Shown in pieces: positions 8,450-25,619 of a DNA stretch of 45,520 nt. The position numbers and the translations under genes are program-made. Numbering within the stretch: position 1 is the first letter of the stretch; each line of letters begins with the position of its first letter. The notes below the pieces were generated by a model that was not told the DNA's origin, ran no database searches, and saw only the letters and a program-made list of their open reading frames with translations. Where the stretch lies: IMG/VR virus record IMGVR_UViG_2579778748_000005. The stretch is one strand, 5' to 3'. The stretch comes from a virus (taxonomy: Duplodnaviria > Heunggongvirae > Uroviricota > Caudoviricetes).

Positions 8450-8745
8450 TTCTTACCCCTGAATACGTTAAGCATCTTTTTTATTTCCTGAATATTGGCG
8501 CGTGCTTTCTCCCTGCTGGTGGGCACGTTACGCGGTACGGCCTGCACCAGAGAAAAATCACGATCGAACTGATAAACAGGCATCACGCAATCATATTCGT
8601 AGCCTTCACGACGGTAGGTTACGCGCCGTTCCTCCACGCCCTTAATCATTACCGTGCCGCCGTACTGGTCGCGGTAAATATCACCGCGCATGAATTTAGT
8701 GCGAGTTTTGCCACTGGCAGTTAAGCCAGAATATTTAAGTTTCAT
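8446..8745 (-). CDS. Hypothetical protein, 99 aa, coupled to primase
   Basis: GGAGA SD; stop overlaps the primase start (ATGA). Confidence 0.6.
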   Translation of the reverse strand: MKLKYSGLTASGKTRTKFMRGDIYRDQYGGTVMIKGVEERRVTYRREGYEYDCVMPVYQFDRDFSLVQAVPRNVPTSREKARANIQEIKKMLNVFRGKK

Positions 8746-8750
8746 TATTT

Positions 8751-8978
8751 TTATTCTCCGGTGTGGGGCGCTTTATTATTCTCGTGAATTGCCATAGCCT
8801 TATTGAGTTCATCAATAACAGGTGTCAATAATGTCTGAACAGCGGCAAACATTAATGATGAATGATCTTCGCCACCTTCCGGCACTTCAATTAATTTAAT
8901 TAACAACGCATTCATTTCGCGTGCTTTAATTAATGCGTTTTCAGAGTGGATTAATACTTCAAAAGGGATTTTATGCAT
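8751..8978 (-). CDS. Hypothetical protein, 75 aa
   Basis: ATG at 8978 with GGGAGA SD; AT-rich coding DNA. Confidence 0.5.
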   Translation of the reverse strand: MHKIPFEVLIHSENALIKAREMNALLIKLIEVPEGGEDHSSLMFAAVQTLLTPVIDELNKAMAIHENNKAPHTGE

Positions 8979-9201
8979 CACAAATTTTCTCCCTTATTCT
9001 TTTAATGTCCTCATTAAGGATGTCTGTAACTTTTATCAGCGAGTTTTTGGCAATTATTTTTATTGTTTTAAGTTTTCTTTTGTCGTGCTCCGACTGTGAT
9101 TTTCTCTCCATAATCTCCACCATGTGGGTAACATCAACGAGCGCACGTATCAGTATTTGCATTGCTTCTTCTGCTGCGTCCGGTGTGGTTTTATTGTGCA
9201 T
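8971..9201 (-). CDS. Hypothetical protein, 76 aa
   Basis: ATG at 9201 with AGGGAGA SD; overlaps the next gene by 8 nt. Confidence 0.5.
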   Translation of the reverse strand: MHNKTTPDAAEEAMQILIRALVDVTHMVEIMERKSQSEHDKRKLKTIKIIAKNSLIKVTDILNEDIKRIREKICDA

Positions 9202-9243
9202 AGGTTTCTCCCTGGCGGATTTTTGCAGCGAATACAGCAACAC

Positions 9244-9584
9244 AACCGGACGGGCAACGGCTACGCGCTTCGCGTTCCGTCCAGGCGGTTACGTGGATGA
9301 TTTGAGATTCTCCGGCACTCAGGGCCAGAAAACGCCACACAAAGGCCGTTTGTGTGTGTACAAGGTGTGGTATATGATTTACAGCAACCATAAATTTTTC
9401 CTCTCTATAGTGTTTGTGGTTAGACGCCCCGTATGTGTTTCCGGCACTGCGGGGCGTTGCTCTTTGTATTTCAACAATCCTTTCGGTGTGTTTCATGTTA
9501 TGAGCGCATGAAACACACGTCAAGGCTTTTTGTATTTCTTTTTTTGTGTATACTGAAACACACCGATGATTAGGAGTTTCAGAA
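9244..9584. promoter_or_regulatory. Divergent control region with a 12-bp perfect inverted repeat GTGTGTTTCATG-N9-CATGAAACACAC (9486..9518) and extra GAAACACAC half-sites
   Basis: Palindrome and half-sites (9553..9562, about 9345..9360) seen directly between the minus-strand operon and the plus-strand RHH gene. Confidence 0.5.
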
Positions 9585-9890
9585 ATGGCAACGTCTAACA
9601 AAAACGCAAAATCACAACTGACAACTGTCAGAGTCCCACTAGATGTTATGCAAGGGATGGAATCCGTTAAGCTGGACGGCGAAAGCAATGCCGGATTTAT
9701 CGTAACCGCCATGCGCGGAGAAATAGCCCGCCGCCAAGCAGAAGGCAGCGGAGAAAATCCCCTTGTGTCGTCACTGGATGCCCTGGCTAAGGTCGAACAA
9801 ATCGGCATCAAAGCAGCGGAAGAAATCGGGCAGCTTGTCACCGTTGCACGCGAAGAACTCCAGCGTCGCAAGACCAAAGAACCAGAGTAA
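9585..9890 (+). CDS. Ribbon-helix-helix-like DNA-binding protein, 101 aa (candidate island repressor)
   Basis: TAGGAG SD 8 nt upstream; TVRVPLDVMQGME...GESNAGFIVTAMRGEI fits a strand-helix-helix pattern. Confidence 0.6.
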   Translation: MATSNKNAKSQLTTVRVPLDVMQGMESVKLDGESNAGFIVTAMRGEIARRQAEGSGENPLVSSLDALAKVEQIGIKAAEEIGQLVTVAREELQRRKTKEPE

Positions 9891-9932
9891 TCACCATCAG
9901 CGCCGTGGTGTAAGGTATTACGGCGCATTGCT

Positions 9933-10121
9933 ATGCAGGACAACACAATGACCGATAAAGAATTGACCAAAACATTATCACCGGCACGGAAAAGACGGCG
10001 CAGAAAGATAGAACATGAATCAGAAAGATTCGCGCCATGTGCTTTTGCCCTTGAGCAATTCCTTAAAGAGTACAGGGAAAAGCGCTCATTGCAGGTATGG
10101 CAACGAACTGAACCAGACTGA
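9933..10121 (+). CDS. Hypothetical small basic protein, about 57-62 aa
   Basis: ORF downstream of the RHH gene in the same operon; start uncertain. Confidence 0.35.
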   Translation: MQDNTMTDKELTKTLSPARKRRRRKIEHESERFAPCAFALEQFLKEYREKRSLQVWQRTEPD

Positions 10122-10213
10122 TTGCATTGCCCACCAGCCTGATAGCGGCTATCATCCCCGTGCTTATGTTTGGGATCACACACACAAACGGCGCAGCGGG
10201 TTATCTGTTCAGA

Positions 10214-10245
10214 AAGGCGGCTCCATTTCGGGGCCGCTTTTTTTA
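10214..10245 (+). terminator. Putative intrinsic terminator of the RHH operon
   Basis: Short GC stem followed by a T7 run. Confidence 0.45.
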
Positions 10246-10390
10246 TGCCTGAAAAACCCCAATTTTGTGGTTTTCCAGTCTCACCAGGGCGAACGAATCC
10301 CCGCCCACGTTCTGGCGTATATTCAATCTTCATGGTTATAGCTCTGTGTTCAGATGATTGATGTGTGGCGGCTGTGTGCCGCCAGCGTGA

Positions 10391-10579
10391 TTAATGAACT
10401 GCCTTGCAGCTATCCTTCCAGGCCAGAACCTCGGATAAAGACCAGCCAACGGAACGACCGCCAAGTTTACGACGTGATGGGAATTGTCCGGCCTTTTCCA
10501 GGCGGTAGCGACACGTACGGCTAAGGCCGGTTAGTTTTTCGCATTCTTTTTCACGTATAAACCGATCAGTGCTTAACAC
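10391..10579 (-). CDS. alpA: AlpA-family excisionase/regulator, 62 aa
   Basis: LTGLSRTCRYRLEKAGQFPSRRKLGGRSVGWSLSEVLAW matches the AlpA HTH signature as recalled. Confidence 0.8.
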   Translation of the reverse strand: MLSTDRFIREKECEKLTGLSRTCRYRLEKAGQFPSRRKLGGRSVGWSLSEVLAWKDSCKAVH

Positions 10580-10943
10580 TATTGCCCCCTTTCGTTTCTT
10601 AAAGAGTCATCAGGTGTCTTATTGTGTCGTATTGTTCCCGCTAGAGTGATGAATGGCAAATACTGAGGATGTATGATTTACAGAAAATGAAACAGTAAGA
10701 ATAAAATCTTTTAAATTCATGTTAATACAAAGGAATAAAATATTGTTCCATGCCTTTTTTCTCGCTCTTTAAAGAGTGATTCGCTAGTGTATAAAAAACC
10801 AGTAACACATTAAAAATCAGCCACTTATAAATCCGTACGCTTTTTCGCCTCTTGTTCGTAGTTGTTCCACATTGTTGCTCATTGTTGCACGTTGTATCTG
10901 TTCGCATATCCAGTATGTGCATACTGAAAAAACACGAAAAAAA

Positions 10944-12194
10944 TTATTTTCTTCTGGCTACTGGTAGCGTGGTTACGTTTTCATGTGTTCCCGCCAGTAT
11001 CCCTAACCGCTCCGTCCACATATCCAGCGCATTGCGTTTAGCATCCAGATAACGGGAATGATTATAAACTCGCTGCATTCCTGGCATCTGGTGGCCTGTA
11101 AGCTGCTCCACGACGTGAGGATCCACGCCTAAATCGTTCAGCATCGTTGTAAAGGTGCGCCGGATGTCATGTAGTGACCAGTGAGGGTGATTTAGCCTCC
11201 TGTGCGCTAATCTGCCGTACTGCGACACGCTTGTTTCCTGTTTCACTTCCCCCAGCAATAAGCCCGTGTGCCTGTTCTGCTCCACCAGCTGCGTGACGAA
11301 CGGCAGTATTGCTTCCGGTATGGGCCGGAATATTGCCACCTTCGTTTTGCTGTGTTCTTTCGGCACGGTCCAGAGCATTTCGGTAAAATCCCACTCGCTG
11401 ATCTCCGATAACCTCAGTTCTACCGTCCGGCATCCGAACACAATCAGGAGGCGGATTAACGCGATGTAGTAGGGGGAGAATATTTTTTTGTCCAGTGCCT
11501 GCAATAATTCGCCCAGTTCTTTGGTGTTTAAGACACGCTCGCTTATATCCGGTTTTTTCCCAACGTCCGCCACACTCATATCATCAAGAACGTTGCTGAT
11601 TGCATAGCGCCGCCTCCGGCAGAACTTAAGCGCCTGTTTGCACGTCTGTAGCAAGAATCCGGCAGTAACAGGCGTTCGCTTTGCCACCTGGTCAAAACAG
11701 GCCAGCCAGTGCCGTAGCTCGCATTTATCCAGCGGCATAGCACCAATGTGCTGTATTACGTGATTATTAAGGCGCTTTTTCAGGGCGGCATAATCCACGC
11801 GGTTTTCCTTTGCGTACGACTCAAGCCAGTAGGTGAGCGCATCGCCAACCGTTACCGGCTTTAACGCTTCCTGTACGGTGTAATTAAGCTCATGACGTGG
11901 ATTTTTCCCCTCTGCCAGCCATGCGCGACACTGGGCGGCTTTTTCCCTGGCTGATTTCAGGCTCAGATCAGGATAATTTCCCAGCTTAATGCGTTCCGGT
12001 GGTGCCCCCCTTCCCGTTCCGGCCCTGTAAGTGAAATACCAGGTTAAAAGGCCACTGGTTGAATGCCTGACGCTCAGGTTTCCACCGTCATTAAGAAAGG
12101 CTGTTTTTTGGGCGGGTGTGCCGTTGATTTTCCTCAGCTGTGTATCGCTCAGTTTGTTAAGTGCTCTGCTCATAATTTTGATTCCGGTCATCAC
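10944..12194 (-). CDS. int: Tyrosine integrase (P4-type), about 409-416 aa; start probably ATG at 12173
   Basis: C-terminal catalytic region with R...HxxR...Y (HDIRRTF, YNHSRY); next to attR. Confidence 0.92.
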   Translation of the reverse strand: MMTGIKIMSRALNKLSDTQLRKINGTPAQKTAFLNDGGNLSVRHSTSGLLTWYFTYRAGTGRGAPPERIKLGNYPDLSLKSAREKAAQCRAWLAEGKNPRHELNYTVQEALKPVTVGDALTYWLESYAKENRVDYAALKKRLNNHVIQHIGAMPLDKCELRHWLACFDQVAKRTPVTAGFLLQTCKQALKFCRRRRYAISNVLDDMSVADVGKKPDISERVLNTKELGELLQALDKKIFSPYYIALIRLLIVFGCRTVELRLSEISEWDFTEMLWTVPKEHSKTKVAIFRPIPEAILPFVTQLVEQNRHTGLLLGEVKQETSVSQYGRLAHRRLNHPHWSLHDIRRTFTTMLNDLGVDPHVVEQLTGHQMPGMQRVYNHSRYLDAKRNALDMWTERLGILAGTHENVTTLPVARRK

Positions 12195-15067: not shown

Positions 15068-16204
15068 ATGGGACAGAGTAAAAAATTGAATAAACAACCG
15101 AGTTCGCTTTCACCGCTGGTGCAATTGGCGGGAATTCGCAAATGCTTTGATGGTAAAGAGGTCATTCCCCAGCTGGATCTGACTATCAACAATGGCGAGT
15201 TCCTCACGCTGCTTGGCCCTTCTGGCTGCGGTAAAACAACCGTTCTTCGCCTGATTGCAGGTCTGGAAACTGTTGATTCCGGACGCATCATGCTGGATAA
15301 CGAGGACATCACCCACGTTCCGGCGGAAAACCGCTATGTGAATACTGTTTTCCAAAGCTACGCACTTTTCCCCCACATGACCGTGTTCGAAAATGTGGCC
15401 TTTGGGTTGCGCATGCAAAAAACCCCCGCTGCTGAAATTACGCCCCGCGTGATGGAAGCCCTGCGGATGGTGCAGCTGGAAACCTTCGCTCAACGCAAAC
15501 CGCATCAGCTCTCTGGTGGTCAACAGCAACGCGTCGCCATTGCCCGCGCGGTGGTTAACAAGCCTCGTCTGTTGTTGCTGGATGAGTCGCTCTCAGCACT
15601 GGATTACAAACTGCGCAAGCAAATGCAGAACGAGCTGAAAGCGTTACAGCGTAAGCTTGGCATTACATTCGTCTTCGTGACTCACGACCAGGAAGAAGCA
15701 CTCACCATGTCGGACAGGATTGTGGTGATGCGCGATGGTCGCATTGAGCAAGACGGCACGCCGCGTGAAATCTATGAAGAGCCGAAAAACCTGTTTGTTG
15801 CTGGGTTTATTGGCGAAATCAATATGTTTAACGCCACTGTCATCGAACGTCTCGACGAGCAGCGCGTACGCGCCAACGTTGAAGGCCGCGAATGTAATAT
15901 CTACGTTAACTTCGCCGTTGAACCGGGGCAAAAACTGCATGTTCTGCTGCGCCCGGAAGACTTACGTGTTGAAGAGATTAACGACGACAACCACGCTGAA
16001 GGGCTGATTGGTTACGTTCGCGAGCGTAACTACAAAGGCATGACGCTGGAGTCGGTTGTTGAACTGGAAAATGGCAAGATGGTGATGGTCAGCGAATTCT
16101 TCAATGAAGACGATCCTGACTTTGACCACTCTCTCGACCAAAAAATGGCCATTAATTGGGTAGAAAGCTGGGAGGTCGTACTGGCTGATGAAGAACACAA
16201 GTAA
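15068..16204 (+). CDS. potA: Spermidine/putrescine ABC transporter ATPase PotA, 378 aa
   Basis: Walker [10 protein letters not shown], signature LSGGQQQR, Walker B LLLDE; matches PotA as recalled. Confidence 0.95.
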
Positions 16205-17051
16205 GTTCCAGAATGTAGTGATTGTCACTATTGTCGGTTGGCTTGTGTTGTTTGTCTTTCTGCCCAACCTGATGATCATTGGCACCAGCTTTTTGACCCG
16301 CGACGACGCCAGTTTCGTCAAAATGGTCTTTACGCTGGATAACTACACGCGTCTGCTCGATCCGCTCTATTTTGAAGTGCTATTGCACTCGCTGAATATG
16401 GCGCTGATCGCCACCCTCGCCTGCCTGGTGCTGGGCTATCCTTTTGCCTGGTTTCTGGCGAAGCTGCCACACAAGGTGCGTCCGCTGCTGCTGTTTCTGC
16501 TGATTGTTCCGTTCTGGACCAACTCATTGATTCGTATCTACGGGCTGAAAATTTTCCTCAGCACCAAAGGCTATCTCAACGAGTTTTTGCTCTGGCTGGG
16601 CGTTATTGATACACCAATTCGCATCATGTTCACGCCCAGTGCGGTGATTATCGGTCTGGTTTACATTCTGCTACCGTTTATGGTGATGCCGCTGTACTCC
16701 AGTATCGAAAAACTGGATAAGCCGTTGCTTGAGGCGGCGCGCGATCTCGGTGCCAGCAAGTTGCAGACCTTTATCCGCATCATTATCCCACTGACGATGC
16801 CGGGAATTATTGCCGGATGTCTGCTGGTGATGCTGCCAGCGATGGGCCTGTTCTATGTGTCCGACCTGATGGGCGGTGCGAAAAACCTGCTGATCGGTAA
16901 CGTCATCAAGGTTCAGTTCCTCAATATTCGTGACTGGCCGTTTGGTGCAGCCACCAGCATTACGCTGACTATCGTAATGGGCCTGATGTTGCTGGTTTAC
17001 TGGCGCGCTTCTCGTCTGCTGAATAAGAAGGTGAGCGAATTAGATGATTAA
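16188..17051 (+). CDS. potB: Spermidine/putrescine ABC transporter permease PotB (287-codon ORF; annotated start may be internal)
   Basis: Multi-TM permease matching PotB; overlaps the potA stop; C-terminus lies at the prophage junction. Confidence 0.9.
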
Positions 17052-17202
17052 TCCTTTATATTCAATGCATTAAGTTTGTTTTTGAGTGGTTTTGCCGTTT
17101 AAGGTAACGACGTTATAGATCCTATCAAAATCAATCAATTCCATTCTGGTTTTGGAGAAAGATTTTTCGAGAGCTTCGGTCTTTAACTAAAACTGATTGC
17201 GT

Positions 17203-17393
17203 ATAATCCCAATACCCCTCCCCGACTATCTGAATGGTCGGGGAGGCACTTCAAGCACAAAATATCATCCCTGCGCCGTTGATTACTCTGCAGGTGAAGT
17301 CGGCCACTCAATATCAGGTGCAGTTGATGTATCAACACGATTCAACAATACCCGATATTTATTCCATGCCTCCAGCAACGATCTTTCTTCCTC
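17203..17393. repeat. Direct repeat copy 1 (tfa 3' end plus downstream sequence)
   Basis: Recurs at 18316..18450 with an internal deletion; the two copies flank the methyltransferase gene. Confidence 0.6.
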
Positions 17394-17549
17394 CGTTGCG
17401 ATTTCCAGATCTACAGCATCCTGCAGTGGCGCAATATACTCACTGAATTCCTGGATGTAGAACTGTGTGGTGACGGTCTTCCAGCCATTCGGCTCCTGCT
17501 GTATCGAAGCATACCAGGCTATTTCAATATCGCTATGCTGCGGCAGCAT
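17283..17549 (-). pseudogene. Tail fiber assembly protein (Tfa) C-terminal fragment, 88 codons
   Basis: Ends ...[44 protein letters not shown], the conserved Tfa C-terminus; N-terminal about 100 codons absent. Confidence 0.7.
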
Positions 17550-17617
17550 TTAACCCCTTGTAATTCATCGCCATAATTGATTTAATTCACAAATAAAACT
17601 ATAATACGGTGAAACTA

Positions 17618-18274
17618 ATGAAAAAAAACACAGATGATGGGGCTAAAATTTACACACCACTTACCCTAAAGCTTTATGACTGGTGGGTTTTGGGAGTATC
17701 AAATTGGCTTGCATGGGGATGTCCTACAAAGGAACACCTTCTTCCACACTTTCTGGAACATTTAGGTAACAACCATCTGGATATTGGCGTTGGAACTGGG
17801 TTTTACCTTACTCACGTACCTGAGAGCAGTCTGATATCTTTAATGGATTTGAACGAAGCTAGCCTGAACGCGGCATCGACAAGGGCTGGGGAATCAAAAA
17901 TTAAACATAAAATTAGCCATGATGTTTTTGATCCTTATCCCGCGGCGTTACATGGTCAATTTGATTCCATTTCCATGTTTTACCTTCTTCACTGCCTGCC
18001 TGGAAATATATCTACAAAAAGCTGTGTAATACGCAATGCGGCGCAGGCCTTAACTGACGATGGAACTCTATACGGAGCCACAATTCTTGGCGATGGAGTT
18101 GTGCACAATAGCTTCGGTCAAAAACTGATGCGCATTTACAATCAGAAAGGCATCTTTTCAAACACAAAAGATTCCGAAGAAGGCTTAACACATATACTCT
18201 CAGAGCATTTCGAGAATGTTAAAACCAAGGTTCAAGGTACTGTAGTAATGTTTTCCGCTTCAGGGAAAAAATAG
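17618..18274 (+). CDS. Class I SAM-dependent methyltransferase, about 218 aa, cargo gene
   Basis: Motif I LDIGVGTG, acidic post-I residue (LMDLN), motif II DSISMFYLLHCLP, motif III LTDDGTLY; AT-rich relative to neighbours. Confidence 0.75.
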   Translation: MKKNTDDGAKIYTPLTLKLYDWWVLGVSNWLAWGCPTKEHLLPHFLEHLGNNHLDIGVGTGFYLTHVPESSLISLMDLNEASLNAASTRAGESKIKHKISHDVFDPYPAALHGQFDSISMFYLLHCLPGNISTKSCVIRNAAQALTDDGTLYGATILGDGVVHNSFGQKLMRIYNQKGIFSNTKDSEEGLTHILSEHFENVKTKVQGTVVMFSASGKK

Positions 18275-18315
18275 CATCCAACCGCAGCACGTTCTTGCTT
18301 AAGACGTGCTGCGGC

Positions 18316-18450
18316 ATAATCCCAATGATTACTCCCTGACAGGGTTCGTAGGCCACTCAATATCAGGTGCAGTTGATGTATCAACACGGTTCAGCAACAC
18401 CCTGCATGCCTTCCATGCCGCCAGCAATGATGTTTCCTCCTTCGTTGCAT
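18316..18450. repeat. Direct repeat copy 2
   Basis: See copy 1 at 17203..17393. Confidence 0.6.
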
Positions 18451-18454
18451 ATAC
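18329..18454 (-). pseudogene. Second Tfa C-terminal remnant, about 41 codons
   Basis: Reads ...[37 protein letters not shown] after an in-frame stop. Confidence 0.55.
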
Positions 18455-18466
18455 TGCTCACCTTTT

Positions 18467-18760
18467 TCACCCACGATTAACCAACAGCCAGACCAGCAGA
18501 CACGCCACCACCGGCACAGCAAAATCCATCAGGCTTGCCACATCCCATGCACGTGGATCAAAACCGCCCCACCACGGCATGTTAATCCGCTTGCCATGCC
18601 CGAACATTTCAATCCAGCGATATTCTGCCTGGGTGTGTTCACGCGCAATGAAGAACGTACAACCGGCTATCGCCCCGTAAGCCCAGTTTCCGGTAAAAAG
18701 ACCAGCCAGTACCTGCACCGCCACGGCACAAAGCGCATGAAGTATCGACGTGATATCCAT
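18467..18760 (-). CDS. Hypothetical membrane protein, 97 aa
   Basis: ORF with two hydrophobic segments; downstream of the tail fiber operon. Confidence 0.55.
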   Translation of the reverse strand: MDITSILHALCAVAVQVLAGLFTGNWAYGAIAGCTFFIAREHTQAEYRWIEMFGHGKRINMPWWGGFDPRAWDVASLMDFAVPVVACLLVWLLVNRG

Positions 18761-18769
18761 CTGCTATCC

Positions 18770-19048
18770 TTAAAACCACTCCCTGAGCGGGCGCTCTGGT
18801 GTAACCACCCACTCACGGAACACGGAATCCTCAAATCCATCGTCAAGAAGACGGATATTAACAAAGTACCCTTCGTTTCGCGTGTATTCTGGTTCTCCGT
18901 CATCAGAAACATCTGTCTCCCTGAACGTAAAACCAATCTCATCAACCAGAACGGCATTCTGCAGCTCTTCGTCCTCTTCCCAGTTAAGTTTCCTGAGAAA
19001 TGCCCTGAAATCTGCTTTATCACTGAAACGCAACGTGAAATCTCTCAC
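18770..19048 (-). CDS. Hypothetical acidic protein, 92 aa, coupled to the tail fiber gene (possible fiber chaperone)
   Basis: Start overlaps the stf stop (ATGA). Confidence 0.55.
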   Translation of the reverse strand: MRDFTLRFSDKADFRAFLRKLNWEEDEELQNAVLVDEIGFTFRETDVSDDGEPEYTRNEGYFVNIRLLDDGFEDSVFREWVVTPERPLREWF

Positions 19049-21108
19049 TCCACAACCTCCCCAAGCTGCGCATCTGTTAGCTCTTTATGCCAGAGACGAA
19101 AATTCCTCACATGCCCAAATAAATGGCGTAATCCTGCTGTAGTTTGTCCACCAATGCGAATGGTTGCTGTACTCCGGATATATTCCCATTTGGTTTTAGT
19201 TTCGCTGCTTAACTTACCGTTACTGACTACACATGTGGACCGTTCGGACTTTACCCGCATACCAATAAGCATTTTTTCCAGCCCGGCATTTTCATTTATT
19301 CGTCGGTCTGAACCACCTATATCGCAATACGGAAAACCGTCGTACCCACCTGATGAACCAAACCCCATTACGATCCCCGCTCCGGTTTGATGACCGCCGG
19401 TATCAAAAACACGCGGCGCTACATTTGGCGTTTTATACCAGTTCTTATGTACCTCACAAAGAACCGTAAAAGGAAGATTATAAAGGTTATTCTTGATTGG
19501 GACTGTCACCATATCGCTTGCCCGCGTTGCCGGTGCCGTCCCCGTAACAATAAAAGATGATGCGCCTGTACCAGCCTCAATCTGTGGAGTGGTTACATCG
19601 AGATAATCCCCTGATGTAACCATCTGCCCTGTATCCGGAGAATACTGGACAAAACCACCAACCGTATTTTCTGTTGTATCTGCTTTTAATGTAGCCTCAA
19701 AAAATATCCAGCCAGTTGCATCATCCTTAACAGACCTTGCTGTAACACGGCTTGTCTGACCTGTCTTGCTAATTATGCGGGTGGTAAGGTTCAGGTTTGC
19801 TGCTCCTATTGATGTCCTTACCTCCCCATCATAATGTTCAAATAAAATACGAACGGCGATATTATCAACTTCACTTTTTACCCGACAGGATATAGTTACA
19901 TGCTTTTCGTCCCCTGAAGTATCAACCCCTCCGGTACTCGAATACAGTCCGATAATGGTATGCGCTTTACTTGTACCAACAATCGAATCCTGTACGACAA
20001 ACCGACCATAATTAAACCCGAAACTATCTGTGCCTGTTTCTGTAACGTCCAGTGAAGTTGACTTATTCCACTTCGAAGGGTCTGTACTGTTCTGGAAGAA
20101 GTTCGTTCTTTGTCCCTCAATAAGCAGGCCATCACACTCAAATCGCGGCTCATTAATTTCCGCCGTTTTCAGTTCGCCAGATTTGTTGATATATGTTGCC
20201 GTTGATGCGCGACTGAAATTAACCTGTTTATCACTGGCAACCTGAACCACATTATCACCAATCTTCACTTTTTTATAACCCGGAGAATAGCCCGTAATCA
20301 TATCCAGCGAATCATTAAAGGGTATCCACACATCCGGCAGCGGCTGTAAAACATATCTGTACGGCTCTGCTGTCTGGTTTGCGTATTCTCTGGCAGCATC
20401 TTCACTTGCTTTTGCTGCCGTCTGGCTTGCTGCCGATGCTTTCGCCGAGTTCGCCGCCGCTGTTTCGCTCACCTTTGCGTTGGCTTCACTGTCTTTGGCA
20501 TTCGTCTCACTGGTTTTCGCTGCCGTCTGGCTGGATTTTGCGTTTTTTTCGCTGGCCTTTGTGGCTGTCTCGCTATTTTTCGCGCTGGTTTCTGATTTTT
20601 TGGCTGCTGTCGCGGAGTTTGCCGATGCAGTCTGCGAGGCCGCTGCCGCCTGTGCGCTGTTAGCTGCATTCGTTTCTGAGGTTTTCGCCGCATTCTTCGA
20701 TGAGGCTGCTGCCGTTTCGGATTTCTTTGCCGCCGCTGCACTCTGTGATGACGCTCCGGCATGACGTGCCACTTCATTCACCATCAGCTCAAAACGGCGC
20801 AGTGCCTCCGGACGAACATCATCCTCCGTCATGGCGCCGAGAAAATCATTCAGCGTACCTGGTCTGGAACCTTCATAGACGGTAATGGTCCCGGCATGTG
20901 AAGGCGGAAAATCTTCAACCAGCAGGGTGACGCTGTACTGGCCATACTCAACATCCATGCTGTAACGCCCGGCTTCATCCGGATTTTCAGAGGCCACCGT
21001 GTTCACCACCACCGTGCTGCTGGTCCGTCTGGCCTTCAGCACAATGGTGCAGTTCTGTACTGGTTTTCCTGTGCCATCTTTAAGCACGCCAGAAATTTTT
21101 ACTGTCAT
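19045..21108 (-). CDS. stf: Side tail fiber protein, 687 aa
   Basis: N-terminus MTVKISGVLKDGTGKPVQNCTIVLKARR matches recalled lambda Stf; Ala/Ser/Thr-rich repeat region; variant C-terminus. Confidence 0.85.
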   Translation of the reverse strand: MTVKISGVLKDGTGKPVQNCTIVLKARRTSSTVVVNTVASENPDEAGRYSMDVEYGQYSVTLLVEDFPPSHAGTITVYEGSRPGTLNDFLGAMTEDDVRPEALRRFELMVNEVARHAGASSQSAAAAKKSETAAASSKNAAKTSETNAANSAQAAAASQTASANSATAAKKSETSAKNSETATKASEKNAKSSQTAAKTSETNAKDSEANAKVSETAAANSAKASAASQTAAKASEDAAREYANQTAEPYRYVLQPLPDVWIPFNDSLDMITGYSPGYKKVKIGDNVVQVASDKQVNFSRASTATYINKSGELKTAEINEPRFECDGLLIEGQRTNFFQNSTDPSKWNKSTSLDVTETGTDSFGFNYGRFVVQDSIVGTSKAHTIIGLYSSTGGVDTSGDEKHVTISCRVKSEVDNIAVRILFEHYDGEVRTSIGAANLNLTTRIISKTGQTSRVTARSVKDDATGWIFFEATLKADTTENTVGGFVQYSPDTGQMVTSGDYLDVTTPQIEAGTGASSFIVTGTAPATRASDMVTVPIKNNLYNLPFTVLCEVHKNWYKTPNVAPRVFDTGGHQTGAGIVMGFGSSGGYDGFPYCDIGGSDRRINENAGLEKMLIGMRVKSERSTCVVSNGKLSSETKTKWEYIRSTATIRIGGQTTAGLRHLFGHVRNFRLWHKELTDAQLGEVVE

Positions 21109-21259: not shown

Positions 21260-21859
21260 TCAGAAACGGTATCCGATACCAACAATAAATGCATCCGTTC
21301 GCCAGTCGCCACTACCGGAACCTTCATAAGCAATATCAATGGTCACGGATTCGGTCGGGTTAAACTGCACGCCAGCTCCCCACGCCAGAGACGTGTTGCT
21401 GTGGCGATCGTCATCACTTCCGGTCAGCACATCGTGCGTTTTCCCCTTGTTGTCAGTTACGCGGAGATAATCCCCGGAGAACGTCGACACACGGCTGTAA
21501 GCCACACCTGCCATCGCATAAGCACTGAACCATTCATTCACGCGTACAGATGGCCCCGCCATCACGCTGAACCAGCGGTTACGCACGGAATCTTCATGCC
21601 AGCGGGTATCGCTGTAGTGCGTTTTTTGCTCATCCTCAGCATTGGCATAACTGAAGGACGTAATCAGCCCCAGCGCGTCCGTAAACTCATAACGGTATTT
21701 CACGTTAATCCCGTTCAGATTATCGCTGCCTGGCATATCAGTGTGGGTCTGAAGATACCCGGCGCTTAGTGTGGACTGATGCTCTGCTGCGCTCGCTGGC
21801 GTACCAGCGGCAACCAGCCAGACTACTGCGGACAGAATAACAGCACATAATTTACGCAT
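21260..21859 (-). CDS. lom: Outer membrane protein Lom (Ail/Lom family), 199 aa
   Basis: Signal peptide plus beta-barrel pattern ending GIGYRF; located after J as in lambda. Confidence 0.9.
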   Translation of the reverse strand: MRKLCAVILSAVVWLVAAGTPASAAEHQSTLSAGYLQTHTDMPGSDNLNGINVKYRYEFTDALGLITSFSYANAEDEQKTHYSDTRWHEDSVRNRWFSVMAGPSVRVNEWFSAYAMAGVAYSRVSTFSGDYLRVTDNKGKTHDVLTGSDDDRHSNTSLAWGAGVQFNPTESVTIDIAYEGSGSGDWRTDAFIVGIGYRF

Positions 21860-21926: not shown

Positions 21927-24900
21927 TCAGCTAATCGTGATGCCTGCAGTGGTTTTCTTCATCACAACAACCAGCAAATCGCTGATACTTGCTGTGGGAT
22001 ACCAGCCATTTACCCACCATGCTGATACAGAAAACTCCAGCGTCATGTGGCCGCGACCAGCAGGCATATCAATAACACCACTGTAAACCAGCGTATTATC
22101 CAGCGCGGTACGGTTATAAATTTCAGCACCGTTTTTCCGTACTATCAGGCGGCATGACGAATAAATATCGTTATTCTCCCGCTCATGTCTGGCACCGCTG
22201 AATGCCACCGCCGGAATAACAATTTGCCGGTCAAACGGCTGATCGTCATAAACCCTGACGGTAATGGTCCCTGATGGCCACCTCTCCGGTGCACGGGAGT
22301 CACGGGGGAAAGCCTTACCCACTGTTTTAACGAGATCGCCTTCAATCTGGTTTGCAGACAGTTTCCCTCTGATGACACAGTTCTCGTTAATGGTGACATT
22401 ATTGAGCGTGCCGGTATTCGCCGTGATGGCTCCACTGATATCCGCATTGCGGGCTGCCAGCCTGCCATCCGGCGTCAGGGAAAACGTAGGAGGATTGCCG
22501 GATGACGTGATGCTCACCGCAAACAGTCGCTTCAGGAACACGTCGTTCATGAACAGCTGATTCCCCTGCGCCACAAACAGCGGCGTGGTGTTGCCATTCT
22601 CCGGGGTAATCATCGCGATACGGTCAGCCTGCAGCAGAATACTGCTCAGCGTCTGACCATCAACATCCTCAATCCCCGCACCAATCCCGGCCACATAGGG
22701 AATACCGTTTTTTGTTTTCTGCACCTTCAGCATATACATGGCATTCAGCTCATTGCGCGTGTCTGACTGAACCCGCTGGATTTGCTGTATGGTCACGGCC
22801 TGGTCACCCAGTTTTTTATCCGTGGTCGAGGTAATTTCACTCCCTTTTTTATCCACGTACTGGCGGACCTGTGCTATCTGTCGGGCATTTTCTGACTGCC
22901 CCTGGCTGACAGTCTGTGAGATTTCACTGCTCACCCGGTCCACTTTCTGGCTCACCTGCGCGATGGCCAGTGTCTGGTCCTCATTCTTTTTCGCAACCAG
23001 CTGCGTGAGGCTGTTTTCCGCCTCCCCGATTTTCCGGGTCACTTCTGCGATATCCGTGTCCATCCGCTGACGGATGTCTTCTTCCAGTTGCGTGACCTCC
23101 GTACGCAGCGCTGAAGCATCAATGCGCTCTTTCAGTGCCTGGCCCAGAAGCGTCTCATCTATCAGCCCCCGGAAAATTTCCAGATACCCTTCACCATCAT
23201 TGCTGGGCTGCCCGCTGGCTTCCACAAAAGCAGATTTTCCCACCAGGTTGACGCTTCGCACGTAAAACCAGAAATCCGTCCCCGGCTTAATCCGGCTCCC
23301 CTGGACAGTCCACTGACTGCCGGTCCCCAGATAACGGGCAGATTTTTCCACCTGTGCCGTGTTCGTGATGCGTTTTTCTGAGAACCAGAATTCAAACTGT
23401 ACCGTCGGGTCATACACCGCAAGACGCGGGACCGCCGTTATCTGAAAATACCCCGGCGTCAGCTCAATGGTGGCGGGTTTTGCAGGCGCGTTAATCCGGA
23501 AGGTGGTGGTCGCAGGTTCGCCCTGCTGGCCGTAGCTGTTAATGGCCCGCACCGTCAGGGTGTATTCCCCCAGCGGCAGACCACTGAAACGGTGCTCCGT
23601 GTCTGCGGTGATGGCGGTGCTCACCAGACGGCTGTCTTCTCCGCTTCCGCTGGTCAGACGCAGACTGAAGCGCACACCCTTCACCACCCGCGGCGTGTCC
23701 CATTTCGCCTGTGCCAGATACTGACCGTCAGCTGCACTCACCTCCACCGTCAGGTGCTGCACTGCCGGTGGGATAACGCTGTTCAGGCTGCCTGACTGCG
23801 GCTCAAAGCTGGCCCCGTTATCCACAATGGCTTCTTTTTCCGGTACGTGCTGCACCGCCGTGATGGCGAACGTGCCGTCCGTGTTTTCCCGAATGGAGAC
23901 ACAGCGGAACAGGCGACGACGCAGTGACGGCAGGGAGAGTCCCCACACACCGTATGTCTCCACACCATCCGGCAGGGTGCTGACCTGTATCCGGTCAGGC
24001 GCGGGGTGTGCGGTGATGGCCACGCTCGCCGGCTTACCGCTGCCGTTAATCAGATTAACAGTGGCCGTGCCGGTCTCCGGCAGTGTCACCTCCCGGTCCA
24101 GCGTCAGGGTACGGCTGGCGGCATCGATGGACAGGACACGTCCGCCGGTCAGGGTCCCGGCATAGTCGTTATCACAGATTTCAATGATGTCACCGGGTGT
24201 GTGACGCAGCCCCTGTGACCCGAGCGTGAAATCCACCGTCTGCGTTTCCAGCAGTTCGGTCTTTATCACCCACAGCCCGGCACGGTGGGCCTGACCGCGG
24301 CTGGTACAGCCGAACGCGTCCATCTTCAGCAGGTTGCGTCCGTAGCGCAGTATGGCTTCCGGGTCTTCCACCAGTTCCGTGGAGGTCTGCCAGCCGTTCT
24401 GCGGGTCGGTGTAATTCACCTCCACTGCCGTGTGCCGGTCCTTCAGGGCACTGAAGCTGTAGCGGAAACCCACGCCGTTATCATCCACCACCACATCGCT
24501 GTTGGTGTACGGCCACACCACATCCGACGGACGGTCCTGAACGAACGTCAGCGTCTGGCCGTTCCATACCGGCATACAGCGCATCGCAGAGCAGAAATCA
24601 CTGAGAACGTCCCACGCCTTACGCTGTTGTGCCAGGTACGCATTAAAGGTCATCCGCGGCTCGGTCCCCCCGAAACCATCCGGGACCGTCTGGTCGCAGT
24701 ACTGCCCGATGGCATACAGCGCCCACTTGTCCACATCCGCCGCCCCCAGACGTTTTCCCATGCCGTAGCGCGGGTGAGTCAGCATGTCCCACAGACACCA
24801 GGCCGGGTTGTTGCTGTATGCCGGTTTCAGGCTGCCGTCCCAGATACCACTGTACGTGCGTTTTTCCGGGTCATAGTTTGACGGCACCTGGATGATGCGA

Positions 24901-25619
24901 CCGCGGATATGGTAGTTCACCGTCATCTGCTGGCCGCCGAACTGCTCCGCATCCACCTGCAGCCCCACAATGGCCGTGTTCGGGTAGCACTGTTTCACAT
25001 CGATGATTTCGGTGTATGACGACCACAGCGTCTTATTCTGCAGCTGGTCCGTGGTGCTGTCCGCCGTCTCCCTGACCATCCGGATGTTAAAGGGCCGGGG
25101 AGGCAGATTATCCAGAATCACCGAGGCCAGGAACTGCGAGGTGGTCTTGCCGTTAATGGTGACATCCTTTTCCGTCACCCAGCGGCCATTACGCTGTAAC
25201 TGAATCAGAATCCGGACAGAGGAAGGATTACGGTCGCCCTTTGACGTGGTCTGCACCAGTGACTGCACCCCGAAGGTAACCCGCAGGCGGTCAATGTTCG
25301 CGGACGTAATGGTGCGCGTCACCGGTTTTGCCTTCGTCACTTCCACGCCCAGTCCGGTTTCAGCTCCGGAGGACTCAAAGCCTTCCGGTGGTGTCTGCTC
25401 CTGCTCCCCGGCACGCCAGACCGCAGTCACACCGTGTATCACGGGATTACCGTCCGTGTCCGTCAGCGGGGTTTTGTTCACCAGAATACTCTGCAGTCCC
25501 TTCACCGGACCTTCTATCGGTCCCTCACCAATCGCATCAATCACACTCATCATCTGCGTGGATTTGAGATTATCCTTCGCCTCACGAGGCGTGTGTGCCT
25601 TACCGCCACCTTTTCCCAT
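21927..25619 (-). CDS. J: Tail tip host-specificity protein J, 1230 aa
   Basis: Size, position and similarity to lambda J as recalled. Confidence 0.95.

Follow-up and report, generated by a model that had tools for sequence, protein, structure and literature searches.

The 45,520-nucleotide stretch of DNA analyzed here, referred to in full as the window, is the IMG/VR virus record IMGVR_UViG_2579778748_000005. The whole of it is Escherichia coli chromosome, 100% identical to strain EC21Z-151, and its gene order runs from phoQ through a small integrative island, roxA, pepT, potA, and potB into a lambda-like prophage. The final 1.4 kb of the prophage contains an intact orthologue of the K-12 gene ybcY, encoding a class I S-adenosylmethionine (SAM)-dependent methyltransferase, which is bracketed by the 3′ ends of two tail fiber assembly (tfa) genes. 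The features of this module are as follows, in window coordinates, with the strand given where one applies.

17034-17282: prophage end (attachment-site arm), 3′ of the tfaX remnant and containing a hairpin at 17217-17246
17283-17549, minus strand: left Tfa C-terminal remnant (corresponding to K-12 tfaX), an 88-aa open reading frame (ORF) that matches Caudo_TAP and aligns with K-12 tfaX
17299-17399: left copy of a 101-nt direct repeat (tfa 3′ end)
17577-17605, plus strand: predicted sigma-70 promoter TTGATT-17-TATAAT, agreeing with 10/12 consensus positions and ending 13 nt before the ATG
17618-18274, plus strand: ybcY orthologue, intact class I SAM-dependent methyltransferase of 218 aa (ORF, Pfam, PHROG, RefSeq, and K-12 alignment)
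18282-18314: GC-rich hairpin between the convergent stop codons of the methyltransferase and the Tfa remnant
18329-18457, minus strand: right Tfa C-terminal remnant (corresponding to the 3′ end of K-12 tfaD by alignment), 42 codons plus a stop, without a start codon
18348-18448: right copy of the direct repeat, 101 nt; Tfa homology stops at 18448, beside the gene for the 97-aa protein
18467-18760, minus strand: gene for a 97-aa membrane-like protein of the tail fiber module (phrog_1443), the right boundary of the methyltransferase module

An initial annotation, made from the sequence alone, had interpreted the direct repeats flanking the methyltransferase gene as C-terminal fragments of tail fiber assembly genes, and this interpretation was borne out on both sides. 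The left 88-aa ORF matches the last 57 positions of the Pfam family Caudo_TAP (75-131 of 131; E = 3.9e-25), whereas the right copy, when 18332-18457 is translated on the minus strand, yields 42 residues of the Tfa C terminus followed by a stop and has no start codon. The Prokaryotic Genome Annotation Pipeline (PGAP) likewise reports 17283-17456 on the left and 18329-18448 on the right as partial tail fiber assembly pseudogenes. The two 101-nt copies are 85% identical and share an identical 38-nt core at 17303-17340 and 18352-18389. The repeat is not a product of chance, since each copy encodes the same Tfa C terminus. The remnants were also compared with Rfam RF02111 'IS009', a predicted E. 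coli small RNA: the left remnant (17323-17526, minus strand) scores 112.5 bits, with a gathering score of 117 (E = 1.3e-26), and the right remnant (18372-18469, minus strand) scores 47 bits. This means either that the Rfam family actually represents conserved protein-coding sequence from the tfa 3′ end or that an RNA is made from the tfaX remnant.

The gene between the remnants had been described as a 218-aa ORF with class I methyltransferase motifs, rich in A and T and lying on the strand opposite the late genes, and each element of that description holds. RefSeq gives exactly 17618-18274 as the coding sequence of a class I SAM-dependent methyltransferase (WP_001550976.1); the product would be 221 aa long if translation started from the GTG at 17609. 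The protein exceeds the Pfam cut-offs of Methyltransf_12 (37.6 bits; cut-off, 30), Methyltransf_23 (28.6 bits; cut-off, 27), and Methyltransf_11 (24.4 bits; cut-off, 21.2). Its motif I, LDIGVGTG at residues 54-61, has the D/E-x-G-x-G-x-G pattern of class I enzymes, the acidic residue at the end of strand 2 (D77) is invariant across 92 representatives of the family, and the protein has the seven-stranded alpha/beta fold of that class. The GC content over the gene is 0.38-0.44, compared with 0.50-0.56 in potB and the tail genes, and the methyltransferase is on the plus strand, opposite to J, lom, and the fiber gene on the minus strand. The reported lack of DPPY- and PC-type DNA methyltransferase motifs was confirmed by a regular-expression scan of the protein, which finds neither (D/N/S)PP(Y/F/W) nor PCQ. 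The profile search that had been proposed as a check recovers a SAM-methyltransferase domain and no family of known function, and the gene is intact in the window; thus, it is neither a pseudogene here nor placed by its profiles in a known housekeeping family. In the antisense orientation to the 3′ end of the methyltransferase gene and the adjacent hairpin (18219-18356, minus strand), RefSeq calls a 45-aa 'hypothetical protein', which appears as a 'nucleocapsid protein' in K-12-type genomes; these calls are probably spurious.

The feature is already known, in that K-12 and RefSeq hold the gene, its flanks, and its annotation, and as a sequence feature nothing new is added here. In the K-12 prophage DLP12, the order is tfaD, the ybcY pseudogene (b0562) on the opposite strand, and tfaX (b0563), and window positions 17325-18447 are ∼98% identical to this region at the DNA level, with the same flanks. 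The K-12 ybcY gene carries a 2-bp deletion at its start codon; the window copy is intact. The record of phage PhiR26_1 labels the gene YbcY, and the protein matches PHROG 2132 ("unknown function") over residues 1-218 of 218 (E = 1.7e-155). At ≥95% identity, the methyltransferase segment is present in 3798/5426 (∼70%) of complete E. coli genomes, with one to four copies in each, and in 15 records of E. coli lambdoid phages, including ev243, 2G7b, and the PhiR phages. A literature search on ybcY, tfaX, lambdoid morons, and defense hotspots retrieved no functional study or phenotype. A supposed kinship to YmfD of the e14 prophage proved wrong (BLASTP E = 14); therefore, the literature on YmfD does not apply. 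The points that are new are a natural empty site, the prevalence given above, the breadth of the family and its presence on plasmids, and a set of conserved Tyr and His(-Cys) positions, each of which is described below.

To identify an empty site, genomes were searched with the sequence expected if both tfa repeats recombined. In one genome, E. coli T309.Ta3, the same potB prophage is present with its attachment arm (97% identical to 17034-17282), the hairpin, a single 117-nt Tfa remnant, and the 97-aa gene but without a methyltransferase. The stop-codon end of this single remnant is identical to the left copy in the window, and its junction with the 97-aa gene is that of the right copy. The middle of the remnant represents a third allele, so a simple deletion from the arrangement in the window does not account for T309.Ta3. 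The module is also found in other joins: in PhiR26_1 it is connected to a full-length tfa and a 1025-aa side tail fiber, in both ev243 and PhiR26_1 it is followed by genes for an alpha/beta-hydrolase, ompT, and int, and in DLP12 it is followed by appY-ompT. Homology to other phages breaks within the repeats, at 17302/17325 and at 18448. Taken together, the empty site, the other joins, and the breaks inside the repeats support the conserved tfa 3′ sequences as crossover points, and we infer that homologous recombination in these repeats accounts for the gain, loss, and transfer of the module among lambdoid phages. The initial annotation had proposed that the cargo was captured by recombination within conserved tfa 3′ sequences. 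The self-contained cassette, the T309.Ta3 site, and the homology breaks agree with the recombination part of this proposal; a recent capture in this window is not what is observed, since the unit that recombines, and is exchanged, is the whole tfaD-ybcY-tfaX module, which is old and nearly invariant. Along with a natural empty site, the two tfa 3′ ends make a clean, documented case of conserved tail fiber assembly sequences serving as recombination handles for accessory cargo.

The comparison with DLP12 locates what has changed around the module. The opposite orientation of the gene, the Tfa 3′ flanks, the promoter spacer, and the hairpin are common to both prophages. Unlike in DLP12, the upstream tfa of the window is cut to 42 codons and joined to another fiber module (the genes for the 687-aa fiber protein and the 92-aa and 97-aa proteins), and the potB attachment site lies downstream of tfaX, where K-12 has appY-ompT.

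The family to which YbcY belongs extends well beyond lambdoid prophages. It comprises 417 representatives at the 50% identity clustering level below E = 1e-30 and ranges over Enterobacterales, Pasteurellaceae, Pseudomonas, Xanthomonadales, some Betaproteobacteria, and plasmids of Actinomycetota. Across Gammaproteobacteria, its members are mostly stand-alone genes of the chromosome. This holds for the homologs with 50-67% identity in Salmonella, Enterobacter, Erwinia, and Pseudomonas; those of the first three genera lie outside prophages, and these and the loci of species-representative genomes lie outside islands. Among 80 loci from GTDB species-representative genomes, no neighbor is conserved across orders; there is only lineage-specific synteny, along with the generic short-chain dehydrogenase/reductase (SDR) and LysR families. 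The gene in the window would thus be a captured host gene, as its homologs are stand-alone chromosomal genes without a partner conserved across orders. Closer relatives (83-89% identity) are found on a Salmonella plasmid, beside insertion sequence (IS) elements, as well as in Citrobacter and in a tannase/esterase island of E. coli. A homolog with 64-66% aa identity is present on ∼600 Klebsiella plasmids, frequently twice on the same plasmid. In K. pneumoniae pvirulence_VBA34918 (IncFIB), the one Klebsiella plasmid examined, the homolog is located at 2525-3178 and only an IS1 separates it from rmpA/rmpD. In Rhodococcus/Prescottella equi, the plasmid homolog belongs to the backbone of pVAPN, outside the vap pathogenicity island. 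Among fusion proteins of the family, an RCC1-repeat fusion is the only one with an informative additional Pfam domain, and the names of cluster members are generic.

The signals around the gene are those expected of an independent transcription unit. The K-12 counterpart of the promoter, TTGATT-17-TATAAC in the ybcY/tfaX spacer, is listed with an H-NS flag in a table of RpoD-holoenzyme genomic SELEX (systematic evolution of ligands by exponential enrichment) (PMC3946193), and the window promoter is nearer to the consensus than the K-12 version. Expression of ybcY is probably damped by H-NS. At the other end of the gene, the hairpin at 18282-18314 has a predicted stability of -23.9 kcal/mol on the plus strand (z = -5.9) and -28.5 kcal/mol on the minus strand (z = -4.8), and is likely a two-way terminator; a sequence scan found no canonical T-tract at this hairpin. 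Given the promoter, the SELEX-selected K-12 spacer, and the strong hairpin, the gene has the appearance of a monocistronic cassette that is read in the direction opposite to the late operon. Its place is the nonessential stretch that separates the tail fiber genes from the attachment site. It has the properties of an accessory ('moron') cassette, namely, a promoter, a terminator-like hairpin, opposite orientation, atypical composition, and variable presence, with the transcription signals being predicted or observed in vitro. The gene may thus be transcribed on its own from the repressed prophage, as are other accessory genes expressed in lysogens. In this respect, it resembles the lambda b-region morons lom, bor, and prophage ompT, which have their own promoter, a terminator-like hairpin, and a distinct base composition and are exchanged between phages in a nonessential region beside the tail fiber genes. 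Unlike the products of lom, bor, and ompT, YbcY is a cytoplasmic enzyme rather than an outer membrane protein, and its expression in the lysogen is a prediction here.

The type of enzyme was approached through structure and profile comparisons. The AlphaFold model (predicted local distance difference test [pLDDT] score, 91) consists of the bare fold plus an N-terminal helix within 218 aa. Its neighbors in a fold search with Foldseek are overwhelmingly small-molecule and lipid methyltransferases, with PmtA at rank 2; a profile search of the PDB returned CysG/BelI, NodS, XrdM, PmtA, JHAMT, and UbiG, and a library of viral folds returned generic methyltransferases only. Against NCBIfam, the window protein matches PmtA (best), CpaM, and RquA, all weakly and over the SAM-binding core only, and has no match to BioC or UbiE at E ≤ 0.01; the PmtA profile (NF045882) gives 17.6 bits with a cut-off of 390, which is far from family membership. 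When the family was scanned, BioC matched 65/92 members, UbiE/MenG matched 37, and NodS matched 28, in addition to CpaM (best E values, 1e-10 to 2e-5). BioC, UbiE, and NodS are the named families matched, weakly, by the largest numbers of YbcY family members; biotin, quinone, and nod genes, which would indicate the corresponding pathways, were absent near homologs at the 80 loci.

Two residue-level comparisons bear on catalysis. His125 is invariant in the family and Cys126 nearly so, both at the end of strand 4. With hhalign, Y12, Y20, and H125 pair with Y19, Y27, and H132 of the phosphoethanolamine-type enzyme PfPMT, whose sequence had been verified against PDB entry 3uj6; the alignment has a probability of 73% and leaves the C-terminal half, which binds substrate and phosphate, unaligned. 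PfPMT Y19 and H132 are the residues mutated in PDB entries 3ujd and 3ujc. YbcY has the same fold as PfPMT and PmtA (8ys9) but scores far under the level of those families, with the substrate-binding half outside the match. In the second comparison, the metal-binding His122-His123 of CysG fall opposite H125-C126 of YbcY. This alignment is limited to the core (residues 52-154), and the comparison covers the two His positions of the His-His-Asp metal-binding motif, in which Asp191 is the third ligand. A search for homologs with the CysG fragment as query yielded only partial proteins. CysG and BelI (PDB 9fcd and 9fce) are metal-dependent carboxyl O-methyltransferases of cystargolide and belactosin biosynthesis, whereas YbcY is not in a biosynthetic gene cluster. 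The PfPMT and CysG alignments point to an active catalytic center but are suggestive only.

Considered jointly, these observations are probably best explained by an intact tfaD-ybcY-tfaX module that is separately transcribed, is exchanged via the tfa repeats, and encodes a small-molecule or lipid methyltransferase. In the repressed prophage, ybcY, which is intact and under purifying selection, would be transcribed from its own near-consensus sigma-70 promoter, with the transcript ending at the strong hairpin, and homologous recombination in the tfa 3′ repeats would be the means by which lambdoid phages gain, lose, and move the module. The enzyme may methylate a small molecule or a lipid head group rather than DNA, which is the less certain step, and catalysis could proceed through the conserved N-terminal aromatic helix (Y12, Y20-D21-W-W) together with His125 and Cys126. 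Several points weigh against this explanation. With only one empty site, a deletion product is as plausible as an ancestral state. Transcription from the strong promoter would give a leader of only ∼6 nt. All matches to families with a known function are restricted to the SAM-binding core and fall far under the family cut-offs, and the PfPMT match reaches only the 73% probability given above. In the literature, ybcY appears in gene lists only, and no experiment tying it to an activity was found.

Among the alternatives, the one that survives best is that YbcY methylates RNA (tRNA or rRNA) or a protein, such as a component of host translation or a phage protein. The alignments, which are again only suggestive, leave O-, N-, or C-methylation undecided and allow for RNA or protein substrates. 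We nevertheless regard this alternative as unlikely, as the top matches of the sequence profiles are all small-molecule enzymes, the NPPY motif of PrmC-type enzymes is absent, and the bare fold with its N-terminal helix includes no RNA-binding or other additional domain.

YbcY could also be an effector of phage defense or anti-defense that methylates, for example, an immune signaling nucleotide, a toxin, or an envelope component and in this way blocks superinfection or disables a system of the host. Its location in the accessory region of temperate phages would suit such a role, and the high mobility of close relatives (on the Salmonella plasmid beside IS elements, the ∼600 Klebsiella plasmids, and the Rhodococcus plasmids) fits a stand-alone selectable trait. 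However, no model in PADLOC-DB 2.0 matches the methyltransferase or the two neighboring small proteins, the distant homologs examined are ordinary chromosomal genes outside islands, no partner gene was found at the 80 loci, and no published phenotype was found. A role in defense is, on this evidence, improbable.

A third alternative is that the gene is a decaying passenger without a function, kept by hitchhiking with the prophage remnants. The pseudogene in K-12, the H-NS flag on the K-12 promoter spacer (PMC3946193), and the existence of truncated variants, such as a 161-aa cluster with 445 member sequences, would be expected of such a passenger. On the other side, the ratio of nonsynonymous to synonymous substitution rates (dN/dS) is 0.10-0.20 relative to relatives at 65-99% identity, and 53 columns are invariant among 42 homologs. 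The gene is intact in the window as well as in ev243 and PhiR26_1, the phage records whose coding sequences were checked, and the dominant cluster is full length (an intact 222-aa protein with 6589 member sequences). Moreover, the promoter is nearer to the consensus in the window than in K-12. The gene is thus under purifying selection and apparently functional, and the passenger alternative is very unlikely.

The weakest alternative, an orphan DNA methyltransferase that shields phage DNA from restriction, has in its favor that YbcY is phage borne and has a SAM-binding motif but can be set aside almost entirely, because the regular-expression scan for motif IV was negative, the bare 218-aa fold lacks a target-recognition domain, no DNA methyltransferase is among the best fold and profile matches listed, and the gene is oriented against the late operon.

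Within the preferred explanation of a small-molecule or lipid methyltransferase, one more specific role can be put forward, although it is a long shot. YbcY might be a lysogenic-conversion enzyme that N- or O-methylates a phospho-amine or lipid head group in the envelope (such as phosphatidylethanolamine or the phosphoethanolamine of lipopolysaccharide) or one that methylates a toxic metabolite derived from the host or a competitor. If so, the consequences would be altered phage adsorption, resistance to antimicrobial peptides, or metabolite tolerance, and the role would explain why an orphan family is present in ∼70% of E. coli genomes, on ∼600 Klebsiella plasmids (beside rmpA/rmpD in the one examined), and on other plasmids. 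Irrespective of its substrate, YbcY is among the most widespread E. coli prophage genes without an assigned function, and it is conserved, mobile, and probably active. The family spans Gammaproteobacteria and plasmids, the latter including at least one Klebsiella virulence plasmid with rmpA/rmpD.

Some homologs have neighbors that may hint at metabolism. An 83%-identical homolog is located in an E. coli island together with genes for a tannase, a TetR regulator, a caffeoyl-CoA-type O-methyltransferase, and an esterase, and IS fragments flank the copy on one contig; the gene content suggests phenolic-ester metabolism. Alpha/beta-hydrolases are found near homologs in several settings, namely, a 494-aa protein in phages, a carboxylesterase in Erwinia, a hydrolase in Enterobacter, and the E. 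coli tannase island. Of these, only the hydrolases of the phages and of Erwinia were compared with each other; as they are not homologous, the proximity of hydrolases is at most a weak lead.

The remaining features concern the prophage boundary, the late genes, which are all on the minus strand, and the island upstream.

16188-17051, plus strand: potB (chromosomal, RefSeq annotation), with the prophage in its 3′ end
19045-21108, minus strand: 687-aa fiber protein, late gene
21260-21859, minus strand: lom, late gene
21927-25619, minus strand: J, late gene
3946-5001, minus strand: major capsid protein E, island
6695-8449, minus strand: D5-like primase-helicase, island
10944-12194, minus strand: P4-type integrase, island

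A blastn comparison with the K-12 potB-potC region places the end of homology at window position 17033, inside potB and 11 nt before the stop codon of the K-12 gene, which locates the integrated prophage in the potB 3′ end. Integration at 17033/17034 swaps out the last four codons of potB, so that the C terminus reads ...KKVSELDD, and potC lies outside the window. In the attachment arm, the hairpin at 17217-17246 is an inverted repeat with a 13-bp stem and a predicted stability of -24.2 kcal/mol on the plus strand (z = -5.6) and -22.4 kcal/mol on the minus strand.

Following the 687-aa fiber gene, the segment at 18467-19048 (minus strand) holds the genes for a 92-aa protein (phrog_1361) and the 97-aa protein (phrog_1443) in place of a full-length tfa. 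Neither protein has a match in Pfam, NCBIfam, or PADLOC.

At the other end of the window, an integrative island of ∼10 kb (1462-12194) is located between phoQ (1-1461) and roxA. Several of its ORFs have no Pfam match, and with its integrase, primase-helicase, and capsid genes listed above, the island looks like a capsid-encoding phage satellite.
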